Sequence record: PP445229.1
Reading direction: 5' to 3' (one strand)
Length of the DNA stretch: 64,000 nt
Origin: Escherichia phage EC.W2-6
Shown: positions 52,837-64,000 of the stretch, in pieces
How positions within the stretch are numbered: the stretch's first letter is position 1
Layout: the number at the start of each line of letters is the position of its first letter
Notes under the pieces: model-generated
The model's database searches: none
What the model saw: only the letters and a program-made list of their open reading frames with translations
Told to the model about the DNA's origin: nothing
Translations under genes and position numbers: made by a program

Positions 52837-52864
52837 TTGACAGGTTTTTCCTTTATTATATAGT
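52837..52864 (+). promoter_or_regulatory. sigma70-type early promoter
   Basis: TTGACA, 16-nt spacer, TATAGT; spacer TTTTCCTTTAT shared with promoter at 55090. Confidence 0.5.
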
Positions 52865-52908
52865 TGCGATTGTAATTTGTAGTTTTCATCAACCATAAGG
52901 AATATCAA

Positions 52909-53781
52909 ATGTCTAAAGTAGCAATTAACCACTTGAACAAAGCAAACGAAAGCCTTTCCTCTTTAGGCTTAACCGTTGGTAGTCCTGATGCGTGGATGGA
53001 AAACGAAAGCGCACGTAAAGGATTCAAAAACTCTGTAATGCTGGCTTGCTTGATCATTAATTCTACTGCGAACGCCTTACAGTGTGAAGATGAAAGCACG
53101 TTCAAAGAGAATGGCTTTACCGATATACAGGACGCTATCAACTGTTACATTCAGGCAAATTTGGATAGCTGGAATCAGAAAGATTGGCCTGAGTCATGCC
53201 GTGATGTGAAAGCTGAATTATCCCGCTTGTCTGTCATGGTTGAAGCATGGAACAAGAAAAACAAGAAACAACCAATCAAGCCTACTGTTGCAAGTAAGAT
53301 TATGAAGTCTGTTAATCTGGCAAGTTATGCACTGGTTGCAGCTATCGGTGTTAGTGCACTGGTCACGTCTCTTTCTGATAAGGCTATCGCTAGTCCTGCT
53401 CCTGCAACTGATGCGGCTAGTGTCTTCTCTAGTTCCATCAATAAGGGTTGGATGATTTGCAACGGTGCGGATAGTGACGGCAATAATATCGTGCTAAAGA
53501 TGAAATTTAGCAACGTAACAAATGATGGAGTTCTCTTTCAATCTAAAACGTTAGATAATCAGCCTAACAGTGATCTAGTTCTCAAGCGTACTGATAACGA
53601 TGCGGATATGGTGACATTTGGCACTGTACAACGTTATGAAGACGTTAAAGCTGTAACCAACCTAGTGAGCTATGGCCCGATCAATGAGTCGATGATCGCC
53701 ACCACGGTTTACAATAACGCTGATAATGCTGTTTATACTGTTCACGTTAATTTAGCCAACTGCATTAAGGCTAGTAAGTAA
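52909..53781 (+). CDS. early protein, unknown function
   Basis: First ORF downstream of a sigma70-like promoter; central hydrophobic helix. Confidence 0.5.
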   Translation: MSKVAINHLNKANESLSSLGLTVGSPDAWMENESARKGFKNSVMLACLIINSTANALQCEDESTFKENGFTDIQDAINCYIQANLDSWNQKDWPESCRDVKAELSRLSVMVEAWNKKNKKQPIKPTVASKIMKSVNLASYALVAAIGVSALVTSLSDKAIASPAPATDAASVFSSSINKGWMICNGADSDGNNIVLKMKFSNVTNDGVLFQSKTLDNQPNSDLVLKRTDNDADMVTFGTVQRYEDVKAVTNLVSYGPINESMIATTVYNNADNAVYTVHVNLANCIKASK

Positions 53782-53805
53782 ATAACCTATTTTGGGAGTG
53801 TAAAA

Positions 53806-54069
53806 ATGGCTATCAAAGAAATTAAGTTATCTAATGGCTTTTCTTGTTTTGTTGGTGGAAGCTCTATCCTGTTTAATACACTTGATGGTCAGATAACGTT
53901 ACCTGTTATCACTTTTTGCAGGATGGAATATCAGCCTCTTAAAGATTGGCTAGCCTTTGCTGATTTTGAAATTACCCGTGAAGACTTCAAATCAATCTAT
54001 ATTGACGGTGATTTATCACTGGCTAACCTGCTCAATCATGGACTAATTAAGGGTGATATTAATGGGTAA
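53806..54069 (+). CDS. early hypothetical protein
   Basis: ORF with GGGAG RBS. Confidence 0.45.
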   Translation: MAIKEIKLSNGFSCFVGGSSILFNTLDGQITLPVITFCRMEYQPLKDWLAFADFEITREDFKSIYIDGDLSLANLLNHGLIKGDING

Positions 54070-54316
54070 TGAAACAATCGCACTGATTGACACGCACAAT
54101 TACGGTGGCGTTACGCTCTCCTTTGATGAGTCAATCGACTACACTTATTTGTCCTTTCTAACTAAGGGTGAAATAAAAACTATTAGCTTTCCTGCGGTCT
54201 ATTTAGTACAGGATTATCTCACTATTGGGAAGTATTTAGCCCAACGCGGGATTCTTCTGTCGCTGGAAGAAGTGGAACAGGTTAGCGTAGCATTTTTTGG
54301 CGAGGATAGCAACTAG
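54062..54316 (+). CDS. early hypothetical protein
   Basis: ATG at 54062 preferred over GTG 54053. Confidence 0.4.
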   Translation: MGNETIALIDTHNYGGVTLSFDESIDYTYLSFLTKGEIKTISFPAVYLVQDYLTIGKYLAQRGILLSLEEVEQVSVAFFGEDSN

Positions 54317-54420
54317 TGATTCATGATTATTTTTGGCGTTGCTTGTTCGTTGTTACAGTGGCGTTATTCGTCGCTGATATGCTTTATTCTTATATTCTCT
54401 AACTATAGGTGATTATTATC

Positions 54421-54786
54421 ATGGGTATTATCAAATTTGTAGTAAAAGTATTCGTGGGCTTCTTCCTTGTCGTTCTCCTGCTGGGTGTGCTCCTATCGGC
54501 TATGGGTAGCGTTAAGGCTGCAACATTCTCCCCTGCTACGGTGGAAGGTTTACAGTGCACCTATTTGATAGAAAATTATGATACCGGTAAAAAGTCACCT
54601 AAAGTTATTATTTTGCATGTAAATGATTTCGATCATGTGCAATCAGATAGTAAAACTATTCTACTGGTAAATGAAACTACTGGTAAACAAATCACGGTCG
54701 ATCACTTGATGCGCTCATCGTTAACGCTCTTTGATGAGTCCATGAATGAAATGGCATCCGGTAATGGTCAATGTGTAAATCCATAG
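54421..54786 (+). CDS. early secreted/membrane protein
   Basis: N-terminal signal/TM (FVVKVFVGFFLVVLLLGVLLSA); followed by terminator. Confidence 0.45.
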   Translation: MGIIKFVVKVFVGFFLVVLLLGVLLSAMGSVKAATFSPATVEGLQCTYLIENYDTGKKSPKVIILHVNDFDHVQSDSKTILLVNETTGKQITVDHLMRSSLTLFDESMNEMASGNGQCVNP

Positions 54787-54863
54787 GCTTAATCTTTCTC
54801 CTGTATTGTGCCGTAGTCATGCCTATGGTCATAATTTATCTGATGCTTTAAATCCTTCCTGTA

Positions 54864-54890
54864 AGCCTCCTAGTGAGGCTTTTCTCTTTT
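54864..54890 (+). terminator. intrinsic terminator
   Basis: AAGCCTC-CTAGT-GAGGCTT then TTCTCTTTT. Confidence 0.6.
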
Positions 54891-55089
54891 ATGAGGTGAT
54901 TGTATGCCTTACTCCCTTTTAGCTCGTTGTGGTGCGTTACAGGCCGCTTATTATTGCTTTACAAGCCGTTTTCTATGATGTATCACGCGCCCCCGCTCTT
55001 TTACCTCCTGATTTCTTCCGGTGTCCTACCGACAATAAAATAAATTCCTTTATAAAACAGTGAGATGAAAAATAATTTGAAAAAAGGGT

Positions 55090-55117
55090 ATTGACATGAT
55101 TTTCCTTTATAGTAATA
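55090..55117 (+). promoter_or_regulatory. sigma70-type early promoter
   Basis: TTGACA, 16-nt spacer, TAATAT. Confidence 0.55.
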
Positions 55118-55296
55118 TGAATCCCGTAGTAAGCAGTAAGTAACAACAAGTAGTAAAAACTCCTCGATAGGTGATTAGCATCACGGTAAAAGGCTTCAAC
55201 GGGGAGCGGTAGGAATACCGACAGTAAGACGCACAATGAAGGTGCTACGCTCTTTAAAAATCAGGCTAGAAAGTGAAAATATTCTTAAAAAGAGTA

Positions 55297-55325
55297 TTGA
55301 CACCGAAAACAGCCTGATTCATAAT
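55297..55325 (+). promoter_or_regulatory. sigma70-type early promoter
   Basis: TTGACA, 17-nt spacer, CATAAT; near-duplicate of promoter at 55599. Confidence 0.55.
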
Positions 55326-55443
55326 AAGCACTCAGTCAGCGATGACTTAAAAAATCCCGCTCTTTAAAAACTTATCATCTTGCCTTTTCGCATAGATTCA
55401 CGCGAGATAAGGGAAAAGAATAAAAGAAGATGATAAAAAAGAG

Positions 55444-55472
55444 ATTGACAAGCTAACACGATGTGTTAAGCT
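55444..55472 (+). promoter_or_regulatory. possible sigma70-type promoter (weak -10)
   Basis: TTGACA with poor -10 (AAGCTG) at 17 nt. Confidence 0.25.
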
Positions 55473-55598
55473 GTAAATGCTACACCGCTCTTTAACAATA
55501 TGAATCATAAGTTAAGCATCACCGCTTAATCTTCAATCAAATAAAGCTGATTGATATATCCTCCCAATAGCGGGAACGACGAAAAAGATTAAAAAGTG

Positions 55599-55627
55599 GT
55601 TGACAGCGAAAACAACATGATTCATAA
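55599..55627 (+). promoter_or_regulatory. sigma70-type early promoter
   Basis: TTGACA, 17-nt spacer, CATAAT. Confidence 0.55.
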
Positions 55628-56549
55628 TGAGCACTCACTAAGCAAATCACCGCTTCAGTGAAAAGCGTAACAACGGCTAACAGTTGCATAGTGTGAGAAA
55701 GCACACTGATAGATTTACCGCTCTTTAATAATTTAAACATTCTCCTATATCGGTTGAATATGTTAGATGATAATAACCATCGGATAACATACCAGATAAA
55801 ACGGTGTAAGATTCTCTAAACTATCAGAGAAAACAATCTTATAATCCCTTGCTGGAAACGTCACCACTGATAAACGGATTCATTGAGTGTACGCAAAGAT
55901 TTAAGCTAATCGCCCACGGTTAAGGGTAGCGGCGGTCATCGCTAACAAGGCGCTACAGTGAAAGAAGTTAATCAGGGTAGGCAAGCCCGAAGAATTAACG
56001 CTCAATTGAGAGCGGCGGGGAGTGGTTAAAAAGTGGCAAATTGCTATTTAACAATAAGGTTTAGTGTGAACGTTTACGATGTGAATGATTTGAGGCCACT
56101 ATTGATGGCGTACATAGTCAGTTTATGTAGTAAACTTGCCGAAAGATATAAAACGTCAGAACATTAGACGGTCAATGACTCTTTCACAATAGCATCCCGT
56201 TGTGGGCGATGGCTAGTGATTGAGAGTTGATACAAAAGGATAGGCGAGAGCGAAAGCAAAGTAGACGATATTGCCGACGGTTACAATAAACGTAACTAAT
56301 TAGAGTCGGACGCACTGCCTTATTGTGATGATTGATCATCGCTATCAGGTCGGCTTCGTTTATAGCGACTAATTAAAGATACCAGATGAAACATCACGGA
56401 TAAGGGGGCGGCAAGGTTAACTCCTGATAAGACCGCCCCGCTTACCTATAACTACTTAACAACGAGTGGTTATAGTTAAGTTAATAGTGACTTAAACAAG
56501 CTCATAGAGAGCGGGGCAATAGCGCCCTTACAAGTGAAAGGTGAATATC

Positions 56550-59694: not shown

Positions 59695-59991
59695 ATGACT
59701 TTAGAAGTATATAAATTCCTTTTTGTAAGCTGTTTAACTATCAGCGTTCTAGGATTTATTGTTCTAAGAAACAAAGCAGCAAGCTGGGAAAGAATGTATA
59801 AATCCCTAGTCCGAGTGGATGAGATGTATAATGAGAAGGTTAAAGTAACACTCAACGATCTTATTATGCAAGTTGAGGACAGAAACAAGCGTCTTCAGAA
59901 CCTCAATCACGAAGTGTTACGCCTTGCTCGTGCTAATGAAGACTTGCGAATAGCTATTGCTAAGCAGCAGGAGATTAACAGTGATAATTGA
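59695..59991 (+). CDS. membrane-anchored coiled-coil protein
   Basis: N-terminal TM (FLFVSCLTISVLGFIVL) then heptad-rich region. Confidence 0.4.
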   Translation: MTLEVYKFLFVSCLTISVLGFIVLRNKAASWERMYKSLVRVDEMYNEKVKVTLNDLIMQVEDRNKRLQNLNHEVLRLARANEDLRIAIAKQQEINSDN

Positions 59992-59992
59992 T

Positions 59993-60217
59993 ATGAACAA
60001 CGCCCCAAAGGTTTTAACTCTTGGGGATTTAGAATCAGGTGATGTATTCCAGTTCCCTCTGGATGGGGAGAATTACTATATGTTATCTAGTCAGAAGTTT
60101 GGGACAACAGACAAGAGAAGTTATATCAATCTTTCCTGTGGCGTTATTGCAACGGATGAAGGTAATACAGTCATCAAGAAGGTCAGCAATGCTCGGCTTA
60201 CCAATAAGGTGGATTAA
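59993..60217 (+). CDS. small protein, GD(V/L)F paralog family member 1
   Basis: LTLGDLESGDVFQF; internal ATG fits family N-terminal length. Confidence 0.45.
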   Translation: MNNAPKVLTLGDLESGDVFQFPLDGENYYMLSSQKFGTTDKRSYINLSCGVIATDEGNTVIKKVSNARLTNKVD

Positions 60218-60219
60218 CA

Positions 60220-60456
60220 GTGAAAGTTAATATTAAATCCGATCGTACAATGCTTCGCTTAAACAACATGAAGCCGGGCGTTCTATTTGAGCGTAAAGAA
60301 TCCCTTTACATTAGAACCGACACATTGTACGCAGACAATTATGTCAACTGTGTTGATGTGGTAACTGGAAAGCTCATTCCTTTTAAACGGGATGAAGTCT
60401 GCCAAGTACGCAGCGATCTCCACATAACTAACATAGAGGCTAAAGATGAAGATTGA
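60220..60456 (+). CDS. small protein, paralog family member 2 (divergent)
   Basis: MKPGVLFERKESLYIRTDTLYADNYVNCVDVVTGKL. Confidence 0.45.
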   Translation: MKVNIKSDRTMLRLNNMKPGVLFERKESLYIRTDTLYADNYVNCVDVVTGKLIPFKRDEVCQVRSDLHITNIEAKDED

Positions 60457-60703
60457 TTTGAAGGTAAATGAACCATCTTTGTGTGTTGGTGATCTCAAAC
60501 TTGGAGATGTATTCCAAATCAGGGAAACACGAGCAGATTTCTACATGGTTGTTCAGCTATTTACCTCACAGATTGAAGAGACCAAGCCTTCTGATGGGGG
60601 TTGTGTCGTCCTTAGTCTGACAAATAAGCAAGTCCTTAAGCTTAGCTCGAAAAGCAAGGTTGTTCTTCTTCATGATGTTGTTATTACTAACAAGGGCAAG
60701 TAG
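60446..60703 (+). CDS. small protein, paralog family member 3
   Basis: LCVGDLKLGDVFQI. Confidence 0.45.
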   Translation: MKIDLKVNEPSLCVGDLKLGDVFQIRETRADFYMVVQLFTSQIEETKPSDGGCVVLSLTNKQVLKLSSKSKVVLLHDVVITNKGK

Positions 60704-60922
60704 ATGGAAATTAAAGTAGTTGATTATCCTAAATATGCAAATGCAGAAGATGTTAAAGGTGGTGATGTTTTCTCTTACGACAGACGTTTCTGGCTGATGT
60801 TAGAAGATAAAACTCCCGATGGTTTATGTAAGGCCGCCAATCTGAACAGCGGTTCTGTTGAAGTCTTCGGTCTATCAACCACTGTTATGCCACGCCCTGA
60901 TCTGTGTTTATCCCAAAAGTAA
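60704..60922 (+). CDS. small protein, paralog family member 4
   Basis: GGDVFSYDRRFWLMLEDKTPDGLCKAANLNSGSVEVFG. Confidence 0.45.
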   Translation: MEIKVVDYPKYANAEDVKGGDVFSYDRRFWLMLEDKTPDGLCKAANLNSGSVEVFGLSTTVMPRPDLCLSQK

Positions 60923-61280
60923 CATCGACTTATAGCCCTTGTGTTTATCAGAGGGCTATGTGAGGGTGTTCCTCATTAACTTATTAATTCAGGCATATGC
61001 CACACCGCTAGGGAGAGCTTGCTCGAACATCCGGTGTTAGACTAAAACCTGTTCAATTTCGGTAGACTTTCCACTACGTAGGGGTACGTATTGGTTTGGG
61101 ATTCAGGAGATCTCCTAGGGGTAGGAGGTCTTCACCAGTTGGGATAAGAGATAGCTCTAGAACCTGAACTCTTAGGCAGAGAGGGTCGGCAATGAGTACG
61201 AGGTCAGAATTAGCCTCCTGACTAGGGCTATCCCTTATATCAACTGGCAATAATGCCTCCACTAATAAAGAGAGAACGTT

Positions 61281-61421
61281 ATGAAGAAGTCAACCAAGAG
61301 TATGAACCGTCCTGAGCGTATGGATGCAGTAGCAAATGGTGCACTGAAGATCGAGTCTGCCATGCTGCGTCTGATGGGTAACATCCGTAAGCGTCAAGGT
61401 GGTTGGGTTTACAATAACTGA
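61281..61421 (+). CDS. small basic protein (46 aa)
   Basis: ORF with strongly biased codons after a 350-nt structured non-coding stretch; terminator-like hairpin follows. Confidence 0.3.
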   Translation: MKKSTKSMNRPERMDAVANGALKIESAMLRLMGNIRKRQGGWVYNN

Positions 61422-61634
61422 TTTAATAAAAGGCTGCCTAGAAATAGGTGGCCTTTGTTGTTTTAATTAAGGGTCAACTCTTACTTAAACTAACAACGGG
61501 TGTATGGTATTGACAGGCATCGGCACGGAACTTGTTACCAACAAGGTTGGCGAATCAAGACCTCTGTGAAGCTCCGAAGAAATCAAGGCAGGTTCGACTC
61601 CTGCTCCCCGACCAAATCAGCAAGAGGTGCTTAT

Positions 61635-61988
61635 ATGAGAAGCATGGTTAAAGATTGGGTAACTAAATCAGGTCTTCGTGCTGTGATTATGCACATGAAC
61701 GACTCCCACTTTTGTGGATATGTAGAGCTACCAGACAGCTTAAAACATAAAAACTTCACCGGATATAACGGGAATGAAGAAGTTTGTTATGTAAGTGTTC
61801 ATGGTGGTGTCACATGGCAAGATACCCTTGAAGAGATGGATGGTTTAGATACAATCGGATTTGATTGTGCCCATGCAGGTGATAAGACACGGTTCAACCC
61901 TAACGGGGTTCCAAGAACAGAAACGTTCTGCATCAACGAATGCGAACAAATGGCTGAACAACTAAGAGATCTCGAATCAAATGTCTAA
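61635..61988 (+). CDS. hypothetical protein
   Basis: Internal ATG with GAGGTG RBS preferred over listed 61500 start. Confidence 0.4.
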   Translation: MRSMVKDWVTKSGLRAVIMHMNDSHFCGYVELPDSLKHKNFTGYNGNEEVCYVSVHGGVTWQDTLEEMDGLDTIGFDCAHAGDKTRFNPNGVPRTETFCINECEQMAEQLRDLESNV

Positions 61989-62157
61989 GCAAACAATCAA
62001 ACATACGCAAGCTGGTTACTCTTATATCAACTCTCCTTGTTGTGGTGCTCGTGTGAATCTGGTTAAGGAAGAGGTTCGTATCGTTCAGCGTGGCGCTACT
62101 GTTGTTCGTTCATGCTGTGTCTGTGGTAATGACATTTTTATCAAAGGTAAAGTATGA
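61981..62157 (+). CDS. small zinc-ribbon protein
   Basis: 58 aa, CCGAR...CCVCG; overlaps both neighbours. Confidence 0.3.
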   Translation: MSKQTIKHTQAGYSYINSPCCGARVNLVKEEVRIVQRGATVVRSCCVCGNDIFIKGKV

Positions 62158-62405
62158 AAAACTTCCAAGCTGCACCAATAACTAAAGTGATCGAAGTTGA
62201 CGGTGTAATGATGACTGTTCCTCTGAACACTCGTTACATTGCAATTGACAAGATGGGCTATGTATGGGCTTGGAAGATCAAGCCTAGTTATAACGCACTG
62301 TTTGATGAGTTTGTTTGTACTGGTACTTACAGTCCTACATTCTTGGGTTTATTTGGAGAGTTTGATGGTAAGCATAAAATCATCACTCTCCCTGCTTGTG
62401 CTTGA
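62154..62405 (+). CDS. hypothetical protein
   Basis: ORF, ATGA overlap. Confidence 0.4.
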   Translation: MKNFQAAPITKVIEVDGVMMTVPLNTRYIAIDKMGYVWAWKIKPSYNALFDEFVCTGTYSPTFLGLFGEFDGKHKIITLPACA

Positions 62406-62412
62406 GGTTATT

Positions 62413-62577
62413 ATGTTCAAGTGGTTTAAACGTTTCTTCCATCTCCATGATTGGGAGACAATAAAAGAAATTCGTTTACACATATATAATGAGATTGGTC
62501 AAATAGAAGACACAGGTACTCGTTATATACTTCGATGTAAAACATGTGGTCATATCACCAAGCGAGATATGATCTAA
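62413..62577 (+). CDS. small zinc-binding-like protein
   Basis: 54 aa with GAGGT RBS; C-terminal CKTCGH. Confidence 0.35.
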   Translation: MFKWFKRFFHLHDWETIKEIRLHIYNEIGQIEDTGTRYILRCKTCGHITKRDMI

Positions 62578-62585
62578 ATAATTCT

Positions 62586-62661
62586 GCGCTCTTAGCTCAA
62601 TGGATAGAGCAGTAGCCTTCTAAGCTATTGGTTACAGGTTCGAGTCCTGTAGGGCGCACCA
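62586..62661 (+). tRNA. tRNA-Arg (anticodon UCU), CCA encoded
   Basis: Cloverleaf by hand: 7-bp acceptor GCGCTCT/AGGGCGC, D-arm GCTC/GAGC, anticodon stem GTAGC/GCTAT with loop CTTCTAA, T-arm ACAGG-TTCGAGT-CCTGT, then ACCA. Confidence 0.85.
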
Positions 62662-62801
62662 CATTTAGGGCTAGTATGGGTGCGGCACCAGAGTTAGTGT
62701 ATCCCTGTTGAGGCAAGTGCTTTTATAACAGTGGGAATTACTTTCTTAGTGAGCTTCTGGTTCGATTCCAGATAGTCCACCAAATCTAATAGGAGGTAAT
62801 T

Positions 62802-63358: not shown

Positions 63359-63580
63359 ATGAAATTAGATTCTAAACAATCACTTAAAACTGTTGAACTA
63401 TCCACCCTTCCAAATGGAAGTATTTTTGGTCATGATAAACACTTCTGGATTAAAACAGACTACTTGAACGATGGGTATATCACCTGTGTCAATCTTTGGA
63501 ATGGCTCAGTGGATGGCTACCGCCCTAGTGCAAAAGTAGTCCCTCAGCCTGATGCAAAAGCTATAGGTTTGGTCTACTAA
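63359..63580 (+). CDS. small protein, paralog family member 5
   Basis: HDKHFWIKTDYLNDGYITCVNLWNGSVDGY parallels 60704..60922. Confidence 0.45.
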   Translation: MKLDSKQSLKTVELSTLPNGSIFGHDKHFWIKTDYLNDGYITCVNLWNGSVDGYRPSAKVVPQPDAKAIGLVY

Positions 63581-63772: not shown

Positions 63773-64000
63773 ATGGACGGAGAAATGGTTTCATATATAG
63801 CCATGACCTACTTGGTAGGTTGGTGGGTTGCAGTGTTGGTGGTGAAGTGGTGCTTCAAGAGAGGGAAGTTTAAAACTTTCCTACATACTCCTTGGGGGAA
63901 CCCTGACGAAACTGCAATGTGGGTTGTGATCTTCTTCTGGCCTGTTATCTTATTATTCTTTATCATCTTCCCAATCCTACTACTATTTGACACTGTATTA
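63773..64000 (+). CDS. membrane protein, 3'-truncated at window edge
   Basis: GAGGT RBS; two hydrophobic helices; open to window end. Confidence 0.4.
   Translation, partial: MDGEMVSYIAMTYLVGWWVAVLVVKWCFKRGKFKTFLHTPWGNPDETAMWVVIFFWPVILLFFIIFPILLLFDTVL

Follow-up and report, generated by a model that had tools for sequence, protein, structure and literature searches.

Predicted structured RNAs between early genes of Escherichia phage EC.W2-6: a two-copy intercistronic domain and tRNA top-half mimics

Phage T4 encodes two small stable RNAs, species 1 (rnaC) and species 2 (rnaD), which lie among the phage transfer RNA (tRNA) genes, beside that for tRNA-Arg, and have a T arm near the 3' end; that of rnaC (CCGGG-UUCGAAU-CCCGG) is canonical and is combined with long hairpins. 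The tRNA-like domain of transfer-messenger RNA (tmRNA) and the alanine minihelices place an acceptor stem on a T arm. Other described RNAs consist of hairpins: the put RNAs of phage HK022 are about 70 nucleotides (nt) long, form two stem-loops and lie just after promoters; phage T7 has RNase III hairpins between its early genes; and CsrB and RsmZ are hairpin chains of about 350 nt with repeated G-rich loops. This paper compares these systems with positions 60923-61634 of a 64,000-nt window, the whole stretch of DNA analysed, from Escherichia phage EC.W2-6 (record PP445229.1). An earlier note had flagged these positions as holding structured RNAs or a tRNA remnant. The two flagged parts are unrelated elements with different distributions: element A (60923-61280), which is probably an intercistronic protein-recognition or processing domain, and element B (61497-61614), probably a tRNA "top-half" mimic excised by tRNA-processing enzymes.

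Element A is a conserved non-coding structured RNA domain on the + strand, located between an upstream small gene (stop codon 60920-60922) and a gene of 46 amino acids (aa). The gap between these two genes is 358 nt in 10 of 17 Gordonclarkvirinae genomes and about 300 nt in the other 7. An alignment of these 17 genomes gave an RNAalifold consensus of 80 base pairs (bp), in which 99.2% of the cells pair. Sixteen of the 80 pairs are altered on both sides, as compared with 6.7±1.9 in shuffled alignments (0 of 500 reach 16) and with 0-3 double-sided changes in controls where the partner was slid by 1-3 columns. Compensatory changes include GGC...GCC to GCC...GGC, UACGUA/UACGUA to UAUGUA/UACAUA, and GGAGAUCUCC/GGAGGUCUUC to GGAGACUUCC/GGGAGUCUUC. 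The structural covariation in relatives that the earlier note had looked to as its test is therefore strong for 60923-61280. G.U pairs make up 10.8% of the paired cells, and pairing reaches 99.2% on the + strand versus 88.6% on the minus strand; this dependence on G.U implies that the structure exists only on the + (transcribed) strand. Among the fully aligned unpaired columns 78 of 131 are invariant, which points to tertiary or protein contacts rather than mere spacer.

The region has no plausible open reading frame (ORF), as had been proposed: stop codons interrupt all three forward frames of 60923-61280. Together with indels of 1-2 nt among relatives, and with a segment that is replaced and about 60 nt shorter in 7 of the 17 genomes, these stops indicate that A is not protein-coding. 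A minus-strand ORF of 62 aa (61074-61262) spans the replaced segment. The description of both stretches as rich in guanine and cytosine (GC) holds clearly for B (53.4%) and only modestly for A (46.1%), against 42.1% in the window; A ranks in the top ~10% of 358-nt windows and in the top ~5% within the early region. Judged from these comparisons of sequence, A is an RNA-level element of the + strand early polycistronic transcript that starts at the end of a gene. It is barely credible that A and B act instead as DNA, for example as an origin, packaging or integration site, or encode small proteins. In every record inspected, GenBank leaves the RNA elements blank or overlays them with short hypothetical coding sequences; these overlays, and a GTG-initiated frame (61500-61988) that crosses B into the next gene, could be taken to favor a coding role. 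However, the annotated short coding sequences over A or B differ among records, the GTG frame has no ribosome-binding site before it and is regarded as an artefact, the G.U-dependent pairing is strand-specific, and A tolerates the indels and the replaced segment described above. The phages are also lytic, with no annotated integrase in the regions inspected.

Element A is present in about 100 Gordonclarkvirinae genomes. Neither BLAST nor pattern scans found it outside this subfamily, and BLAST from the most divergent member gave matches that were still confined to it; patterns run against IMG/VR and metagenomes returned kuravirus-like contigs only (79-97% identity). No match to A was found in 5,426 complete E. 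coli genomes, and a host origin was rejected for A and B alike since neither matches these genomes. Rfam 15 was scanned at the gathering threshold over the whole window and at E<=10 over 60500-62800, and the latter scan gave no match to A.

A paralogue of the 5' part of A, here called A', was found from BLAST matches that fell in two places per record, followed by a local search of phage EK010, which revealed a second copy of the first hairpin, P1, and by reading of the sequences by eye. The EK010 A' region is a 241-nt intergenic stretch that is followed by divergence and an intrinsic terminator. The parts of A' occur in the same order as in A: AGUAAC, P1, the hairpin hp2, an AU-rich linker, a small hairpin, and a hairpin with the same internal loop. 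A' is found in 104 records, comprising every Gordonclarkvirinae genome and the Salmonella Moazamivirus phages 7-11, SE131 and SeKF_80 (68-70% identity). It lies at 61826-62050 of EC.W14-3 (PP496998; locus L044:501-725), at L033:13388-13631 in EK010, and at L043:440-685 in 7-11, upstream of the endolysin gene; it ends in an intrinsic terminator. In the phage of the window itself, A' would lie at ~66.07-66.29 kilobases (kb), about 5 kb downstream of A and beyond the window end at 64000. A joint alignment of five A and four A' sequences has 99.5% of cells pairing, with 7 of 23 pairs altered on both sides versus 0-2 in slid controls. Its members share AGUAAC, P1, hp2, the AU linker, the small hairpin and the hairpin with the CUAGGG(A/C) / (G/A)AACAUC loop. 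A covariance model of this module (R1) scores 151.7 bits at window positions 60917-61048. Inside the 64-kb window the model finds one copy and no second one; three loci cover both sites (EK010, ECBP2, NJ01), and in each of them it detects A as well as A'. For A in the window, and for A' in both EC.W14-3 and 7-11, the gene directly upstream belongs to phrog_6570, which suggests that the duplicated unit was probably the gene plus the RNA. The 5' module of A is thus one of two paralogous copies per genome, A' being the second, and both are usually placed after a small gene of the phrog_6570 group. As a separate observation, an invariant segment of A, AAAACCUGUU (61043-61052), is complementary at 9 of 10 positions to an invariant segment of A', AGCAGGUUAU (L044 ~645-656), which is predicted to pair, within A', with the linker UAACCU; the complementarity could reflect an A:A' contact or chance.

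The fold of A is a predicted chain of eight hairpins with covarying stems. P1 (60931-60960; UUAUAGCCCUU paired with GAGGGCUAUG around a 10-nt loop) starts 9 nt after the upstream stop codon. It includes the perfect 8-bp hairpin seen earlier, in which ATAGCCCT (60933-60940) pairs with AGGGCTAT (60952-60959), and which grows to 10 bp (60931-60940/60951-60960) through flanking U-A and U.G pairs. The AAGUAAC junction at P1 is invariant, P1 also opens A', and one compensatory U-A to A-U change occurs in 7-11. The hp2 hairpin (60961-60975; UGAGG-GUGUU-CCUCA) is invariant in A, and its homologue in A' has the compensating stems GAGUU/GACUC, GAGCU/GGCUC and GAGUUA/UAACUC. It is followed by a single-stranded AU-rich linker of variable sequence (60976-60991) and by a small hairpin, GGC-AUAU-GCC (60992-61001), two of whose three pairs are altered on both sides; this hairpin reads GCC...GGC in A of Suseptimavirus, CCC-GUAU-GGG in A' and GCC-GUAU-GGC in A' of 7-11. 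The internal-loop hairpin (61002-61037) consists of a lower stem (61002-07/61032-37) and an upper stem (61015-18/61021-24) on either side of a 7x7 loop, with CUAGGGA (61008-61014) opposite GAACAUC (61025-61031). The loop sequences are kept across A, A' and 7-11 while both stems are rewritten, the lower as ACACCG/CGGUGU, CCGAUG/CGUCGG or UCGGUG/CGCCGA and the upper as GAGC/GCUC, GAGG/CCUC or GAGAC/GUCUC.

The remaining part of A begins with a single-stranded segment (61038-61066) whose 5' half (UAGACUAAAACCUGU) is near-invariant and whose 3' part is variable. Hairpin 1 (61067-61099) ends in an invariant UA-GGGG-UA tip (UACGUA GGGG UACGUA), and its stem shows the series C-G/U-G/U-A and C-G/U-A. 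Hairpin 2 (61106-61133; 12 bp) has the same tip, with 4 of its 12 pairs altered on both sides. In the long hairpin (61137-61245), 6 of 12 stem pairs are altered on both sides and the closing AGUU/AACU is invariant; its apex of ~65 nt (61159-61223) is the part replaced by a short tip in 7 of the 17 relatives, and its stem is rewritten in several ways. The chain closes just 5' of the ribosome-binding region with a small hairpin, GGCA-AUAA-UGCC (61246-61257), which is invariant and hence offers no covariation handle. The parts that never change are the 7x7 internal loop, the two UA-GGGG-UA tips and the single-stranded UAGACUAAAACCUGU. The repeated motifs noticed earlier can be located within this fold: four CTAGGG(G)-type sites begin at 61008 (CTAGGGA), 61079 (TAGGGGTA), 61116 (TAGGGGTA) and 61222 (CTAGGGC), and they are loops of conserved hairpins. 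TAGGGGTA occurs three times in 64 kb, two of them within A and each of these a hairpin loop. A genome-wide role for the CTAGGG and TAGGGGTA motifs was rejected, as YTAGGG is not enriched over the genome (41 found versus 49 expected).

The position of A immediately 5' of a gene, together with its many invariant unpaired bases, might suggest a ligand-sensing or translation-coupled leader, that is, a riboswitch-like operator hiding the ribosome-binding site of gene 112, as the 46-aa gene is called in phiEco32. RNAalifold does pair UCCUC (60970-74) with GAGAGA (61270-75) and extends the base of P1, but this long-range helix never varies and so has no covariation, and it competes with hp2. Since hp2 is shown to be real by its compensating stems in A', the long-range pairing to the ribosome-binding site is unsupported and was discarded. 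In addition, A' has no such partner and precedes a terminator rather than a start codon, and no Rfam riboswitch matches; an operator of this type is accordingly highly improbable. A coupling of the upstream stop codon to translation was also dropped, because the ORFs upstream of A' end at other positions.

A strong terminator stands within 100-400 nt downstream of both A and A'. Two paralogous modules placed in this way within one co-directional early operon would suit a cis-acting processive antiterminator, in which the shared 5' module modifies RNA polymerase as the HK022 put RNAs do, and genes continue past the terminator at 61429-61456 though no good promoter follows. However, several + strand terminators already lie upstream of A (57472, 58946, 59031), and the module is far larger than the put RNAs and has no known similarity to them, the put sequences themselves not having been compared. 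Antitermination is for these reasons very unlikely. The main rival is a trans-acting stable non-coding RNA that is freed from the early transcript and titrates a host or phage protein through its repeated G-rich loops, as a CsrB-type sponge, instead of working on the message that carries it; both the put-like and the riboswitch-like alternatives are less likely than this. A chain of hairpins with invariant loops, the presence of two paralogues per genome and a replaceable apical domain, as found in peripheral stems of ribonucleoprotein RNAs, are all consistent with a sponge, and A' runs directly into an intrinsic terminator in the manner of a small RNA or an RNA derived from a 3' untranslated region. 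On the other hand, A has no terminator of its own and continues straight into the ribosome-binding site of gene 112, its G-rich loops number only 2-4 and lack the GGA motif of CsrA sites, and a promoter scan found no promoter directly upstream of A. A released RNA is therefore possible, although not what would be expected.

The preferred reading of A is that of a cis-acting "punctuation" domain between cistrons of the early polycistronic RNA. P1 and hp2 would cap the upstream message, and the AU-rich linker (60976-60991) would be the probable entry point of an endonuclease. The invariant loops would serve as a recognition platform for a phage or host protein, which may set the stability or translation of the gene-112 message ending at the terminator 61429-61456.

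Element B (118 nt, + strand) has a predicted cloverleaf-like topology in which a 58-nt irregular hairpin replaces the anticodon arm. There is no anticodon loop and no canonical D arm, and a small hairpin containing TTGACA stands at the place of the latter. The 5' acceptor strand CGGG (61497-61500) pairs with CCCG (61607-61610), giving four Watson-Crick pairs and then U.C. The long arm (61520-61577) carries the tip hairpin CCAAC-AAG-GUUGG (61538-61550), and a linker of 9-10 nt separates it from the T arm, GGCAGG-UUCGACU-CCUGCU (61587-61605). The T loop is canonical, and the core of the arm (GCAGG-UUCGACU-CCUGC, 61588-61604) has the 5-bp stem and UUCRANY loop of a tRNA. The T arm reported by the earlier note is thus found at GCAGG (61588-92), TTCGACT (61593-99) and CCTGC (61600-04), followed by TCCCCG-A-CCA to 61614; the 3' acceptor strand CCCG, discriminator A and encoded CCA occupy 61607-61614, with ACCA conserved. 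The note's remark that a complete cloverleaf is absent also stands, as ARAGORN and Rfam call neither a tRNA nor a tmRNA at 61497-61614; the tRNA and covariance-model scanning that it had proposed calls only a tRNA-Arg at 62586-62661 in the window. As far as its sequence goes, B mimics the top half of a tRNA, having an acceptor stem, a T arm and an encoded ACCA.

Other identities of B were tried and rejected. With default and relaxed settings alike, ARAGORN returns nothing but forced models that contain artificial introns, which speaks against a tRNA, tmRNA or intron-containing tRNA; a G3-C70 pair in place of G3.U70 and the negative ARAGORN -m run further argue against a tmRNA. The TTGACA box pointed out earlier is present at 61511-61516, but it has no usable -10 hexamer: those at allowed spacing are TTGTTA, TGTTAC and GTTACC, and the promoter scan is empty there. 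The phiEco32 sigma consensus is TAATGTATA (PMC4331800), and it has no match at the box. The box is thus part of the RNA and no promoter.

Most kuraviruses match the window only to ~61496-61502, and the following 120 nt match just four kuraviruses. B also occurs, again between genes, in Salmonella phages 7-11 and SeKF_80, which are otherwise dissimilar, at 93% identity; in total it was found in 7 of 50,697 phage records. Homology with 7-11 extends from 61496 (ACGGG) to 61615 (GACCAA), which are the predicted ends of the RNA. Empty sites in phiEc_1, 4E8 and phiEco32 read AAACTAACAA followed directly by GAGG, while filled sites carry an insert of 127 nt whose 3' end (AAATCAGCAA or AAATTAACAA) imperfectly repeats the left flank. 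The left copy of this imperfect 10-nt direct repeat, AAACTAACAA, lies at the insertion point (61487-61496) and the right copy, AAATCAGCAA (AAATTAACAA in pEC-N1203-2Af.1), at 61614-61623. From these comparisons B is a discrete 127-nt insert that was exchanged horizontally with Moazamivirus phages. Of the two possibilities raised in the earlier note, structured RNAs are borne out, while B is not a decayed tRNA leftover in place. Wider searches for B homologues gave 7-11 itself and one chance hit with IMG/VR patterns, four matches in unrelated metagenome-assembled genomes in a scan of genome contigs, which were taken as chance and not read, and none in a metagenome scan.

The four sequence variants of the tRNA-like stretch are consistent with its fold. 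The eight differences between B and its 7-11 counterpart are all structure-neutral; they include one T-stem pair changed from C-G to U-A (also in SeKF_80), one T-loop change and two C-to-U changes that face G. In the tip loop every one of the three bases differs in 7-11 (GUA) and the stem is kept, while an anticodon-like hairpin of B, CUUG-UUACCAA-CAAG, is disrupted there.

A second RNA of this type was found by a T-loop motif scan of the window. Element C (62668-62782, + strand; 115 nt) lies directly after the tRNA-Arg and has the acceptor stem GGGCUA/UAGUCC with G3.U70, followed by A73 and CCA, and a canonical T arm (62756-62772). About 29 Gordonclarkvirinae records hold C at >=95% identity, with no annotation among the matches listed; Bas90, a BASEL kuravirus, carries it and phiEco32 lacks it. 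ARAGORN and Rfam make no call on C. C and B are alike in size, in the 5' GUAUGG and in the 3' ACCAAAUC. At the joint where B is inserted, the Moazamivirus phage SE131 has a stretch of ~300 nt in place of B and the small gene after it. The first 206 nt of this stretch (L046 603-808) hold two tandem mini-RNAs of 63 and 59 nt, each with a 6-7-bp acceptor stem containing G3.U70, a T arm, A73 and CCA; the 84-nt spacer between them can form a hairpin and possibly an H-type pseudoknot. G3.U70 is the alanine identity pair. SE131 #2 shares the 3' ACCAAAUC, recurs in phage pSal-SNUABM-01, and matches the Rfam tmRNA model (RF00023) over its acceptor and T arm only, with 25.9 bits (E 3e-8), below the gathering score of 47. 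B, C and the SE131 elements thus form a putative set of tRNA top-half mimics. The recurrence of one acceptor/T-arm/CCA shape in differing sequences at equivalent loci argues for selection on that shape and against B being a dead remnant.

The alternative is that B is a functionless scar, either a decaying tRNA pseudogene or a recombination by-product that hitch-hikes between co-infecting phages. B is rare, with its seven records, has an unremarkable folding energy and an imperfect acceptor stem, and sits at a joint where kuraviruses carry differing inserts; its 93% identity may be mere recency. Such a scar is nevertheless unlikely, given that homology stops exactly at the predicted RNA ends and that the eight differences all spare helices, with one compensatory pair among them. 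Moreover, other complete acceptor/T-arm/CCA mini-RNAs stand at this locus in SE131 and pSal-SNUABM-01, and the similar element C is kept in ~29 genomes, which points to repeated selection for shape. The preferred reading, that of an excised top-half mimic, would have B cut from the early transcript by RNase P at C61497 and by 3' trimming to CCA61614. By analogy with T4 species 1 RNA, the excised form may build up as a stable small RNA and act on factors that read the acceptor/T-arm/CCA end of tRNAs. RNAs of this type could be decoys, processing signals for the downstream message, or something else.

The best explanation overall, in which A is a cis-acting intercistronic domain and B a tRNA-processed top-half mimic, is held with about even confidence. 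Several points weigh against it. For A, the invariant loops offer no covariation handle on tertiary contacts. The paralogue A' precedes a terminator and not a gene, which suits a released non-coding RNA at least equally well. The gene-112 homologue of the Salmonella phage PKM.Hi.22.6 has no A ahead of it, so the gene does not need A, and a gene from a different family (phrog_3566, the phi32_116 homologue, or a membrane protein) takes the upstream place in some phages. As for B, shuffled sequence folds just as stably (z = -0.04), no more than four Watson-Crick pairs make up the acceptor stem, and no tRNA or tmRNA model recognizes it (ARAGORN; Rfam at E<=10, with no RF00005 or RF00023 match over 61497-61614). 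As only four sequence variants of B exist, its covariation rests on one stem pair, and its high identity could reflect recent transfer. The phiEco32 and 7-11 transcription papers give no expression, end-mapping or binding data for A or B; no mention of A, A', B or C was found in these or in Kuravirus papers.

A more far-reaching reading, which is doubtful at present, is that the phiEco32 group of phages has two kinds of functional RNA that have not been described before, the A/A' regulators and the tRNA top-half decoys. A/A' would then be a new protein- or polymerase-binding RNA that controls whether early transcripts pass, or how stable they are, at gene blocks bounded by terminators. B, C and the SE131 elements would be fast-evolving, horizontally exchanged decoys, some of them alanine-acceptor-like, which soak up host factors that recognize or modify the acceptor/CCA end of tRNAs and thereby shield the translation apparatus of the infected cell. 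CapRel- and MenT-type defence toxins are examples of such factors.

The 46-aa gene between A and B (61281-61421, + strand) is a homologue of phi32_112. It had been listed as a small ORF and is a real gene (phrog_13305, E 6e-28): its length and its N-terminus MNRPERMDAVANGALK are kept in 15 kuravirus relatives, the same N-terminus recurs in a 51-aa homologue of a distant Salmonella phage, and its variable sites show a third-position bias (31/18/16). The hairpin noted 3' of this gene is a strong intrinsic terminator (61429-61466, + strand), in which a stem-loop with a 12-bp stem and a tetraloop (61429-61456) is followed by the U-rich tail GTTGTTTT. It is kept in all relatives with variation in the loop, and is annotated as a terminator in phage 4E8. 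The right repeat copy beyond B is followed by GAGG (61624-27), the ribosome-binding site of the next gene (ATG 61635). The terminator, TTAATTAAGGGNCAACTCTTACTTAAACTAACAA and GAGG make up a conserved cassette (61429-61496, + strand), which precedes different genes in different kuraviruses and into which B is inserted; the cassette has the look of a recombination joint, and a weak promoter (TTAATT, 17 bp, TAAACT) could lie hidden in it. In ES17 (L017 1160-1240), a different insert of ~80 nt occupies the B site and is bounded by a 12-nt inverted repeat, AGGTAAATCACC...GGTGGTTTACCT; it is not tRNA-like.

Over positions 60600-62000, the window matches Escherichia phages EC.W14-3 and EC.W8-1 at 100% identity, and about 100 further Gordonclarkvirinae genomes (Kuravirus and Suseptimavirus), phiEco32 among them, at 82-93%; by this identity, the phage of the window is a Kuravirus, a phiEco32-like coliphage. 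The genes around the flagged stretch are on the + strand in a rightward early operon. Its phiEco32 counterpart is the interval from phi32_113 to phi32_110, with that of A in the phi32_113/phi32_112 gap. Family searches with the proteins of the flanking genes gave matches only to families without assigned function, and a search for related loci with the gene upstream of A as the query gave three genomes only, all already known. Five paralogous ORFs of 72-86 aa on the + strand (59957-60217, 60220-60456, 60446-60703, 60704-60922 and 63359-63580) belong to the phrog_6570/9955/16423 group, and four of them are in tandem immediately 5' of A. Most have a GDVF-like motif, and in other genomes A' is preceded by genes of this group. 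Further upstream, window positions 52837-55628 (+ strand) contain four near-consensus sigma-70 promoters (TTGACA, 16-17 bp, TATAGT / CATAAT / TAATAT), three of them in an ORF-poor stretch at ~54.8-56.5 kb; they are probably an early promoter cluster at the genome end, upstream of the flagged stretch. The genuine tRNA-Arg(TCT) (62586-62661, + strand) is called by ARAGORN and scores 72.4 bits with Rfam.

Gordonclarkvirinae are among the most often isolated coliphages and are used in phage therapy work, and nearly all of their early region is annotated as "hypothetical". They were unusually resistant to known defence systems in the BASEL study (PMC11990801). The unannotated RNA elements now identified in this region are a covariation-supported two-copy family, also present in a second phage family, and a set of interchangeable acceptor/T-arm mimics. 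Should the tRNA mimics turn out to serve as decoys or processing signals, the use of tRNA-like RNAs by phages would extend beyond complete tRNAs.

Compared with known systems, A and A' match no described RNA family and appear to be a well-supported new structured RNA family. Like the put RNAs, they are two paralogous folded modules upstream of terminators in which stems differ and loops are kept, an analogy of position; unlike the put RNAs, A is 358 nt long and lies deep in an operon. As in the T7 early region, paralogous internal-loop hairpins stand between early genes and would define message ends or stability. However, the internal-loop hairpin of A, with 6+4 bp around its 7x7 loop, is below the typical length of an RNase III substrate, and A has seven further hairpins and conserved single strands that the T7 sites lack. 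A resembles CsrB and RsmZ in length, in its chain of hairpins and in its repeated G-rich loops, but these loops are GGGG or CUAGGGA instead of A(N)GGA, are few, and come with no promoter or terminator of A's own. B, C and the SE131 elements share with the tmRNA tRNA-like domain and alanine minihelices the acceptor on a T arm, A73, CCA and the lack of an anticodon. C and the two SE131 elements have the G3.U70 of tmRNA whereas B has G3-C70; they differ from tmRNA in having no tag reading frame or pseudoknot series, SE131 #2 scores far below the gathering threshold, and ARAGORN is negative. B and C are closest to the T4 species RNAs, with which they share a length of 115-139 nt, a T arm near the 3' end, long hairpins standing in for the D and anticodon arms, and no Rfam family. 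C follows directly after a tRNA-Arg, as rnaD and rnaC do in T4, whereas B adjoins no tRNA gene. Alignment with the T4 RNAs shows the T loop in common and no further sequence homology, and B and C have a paired acceptor stem and an encoded ACCA at the end, which is not obviously so for rnaC. B and C can thus probably be added, as new members, to the phage tRNA-like RNAs of T4 species 1 type, to which stability and processing would be attributed by analogy.

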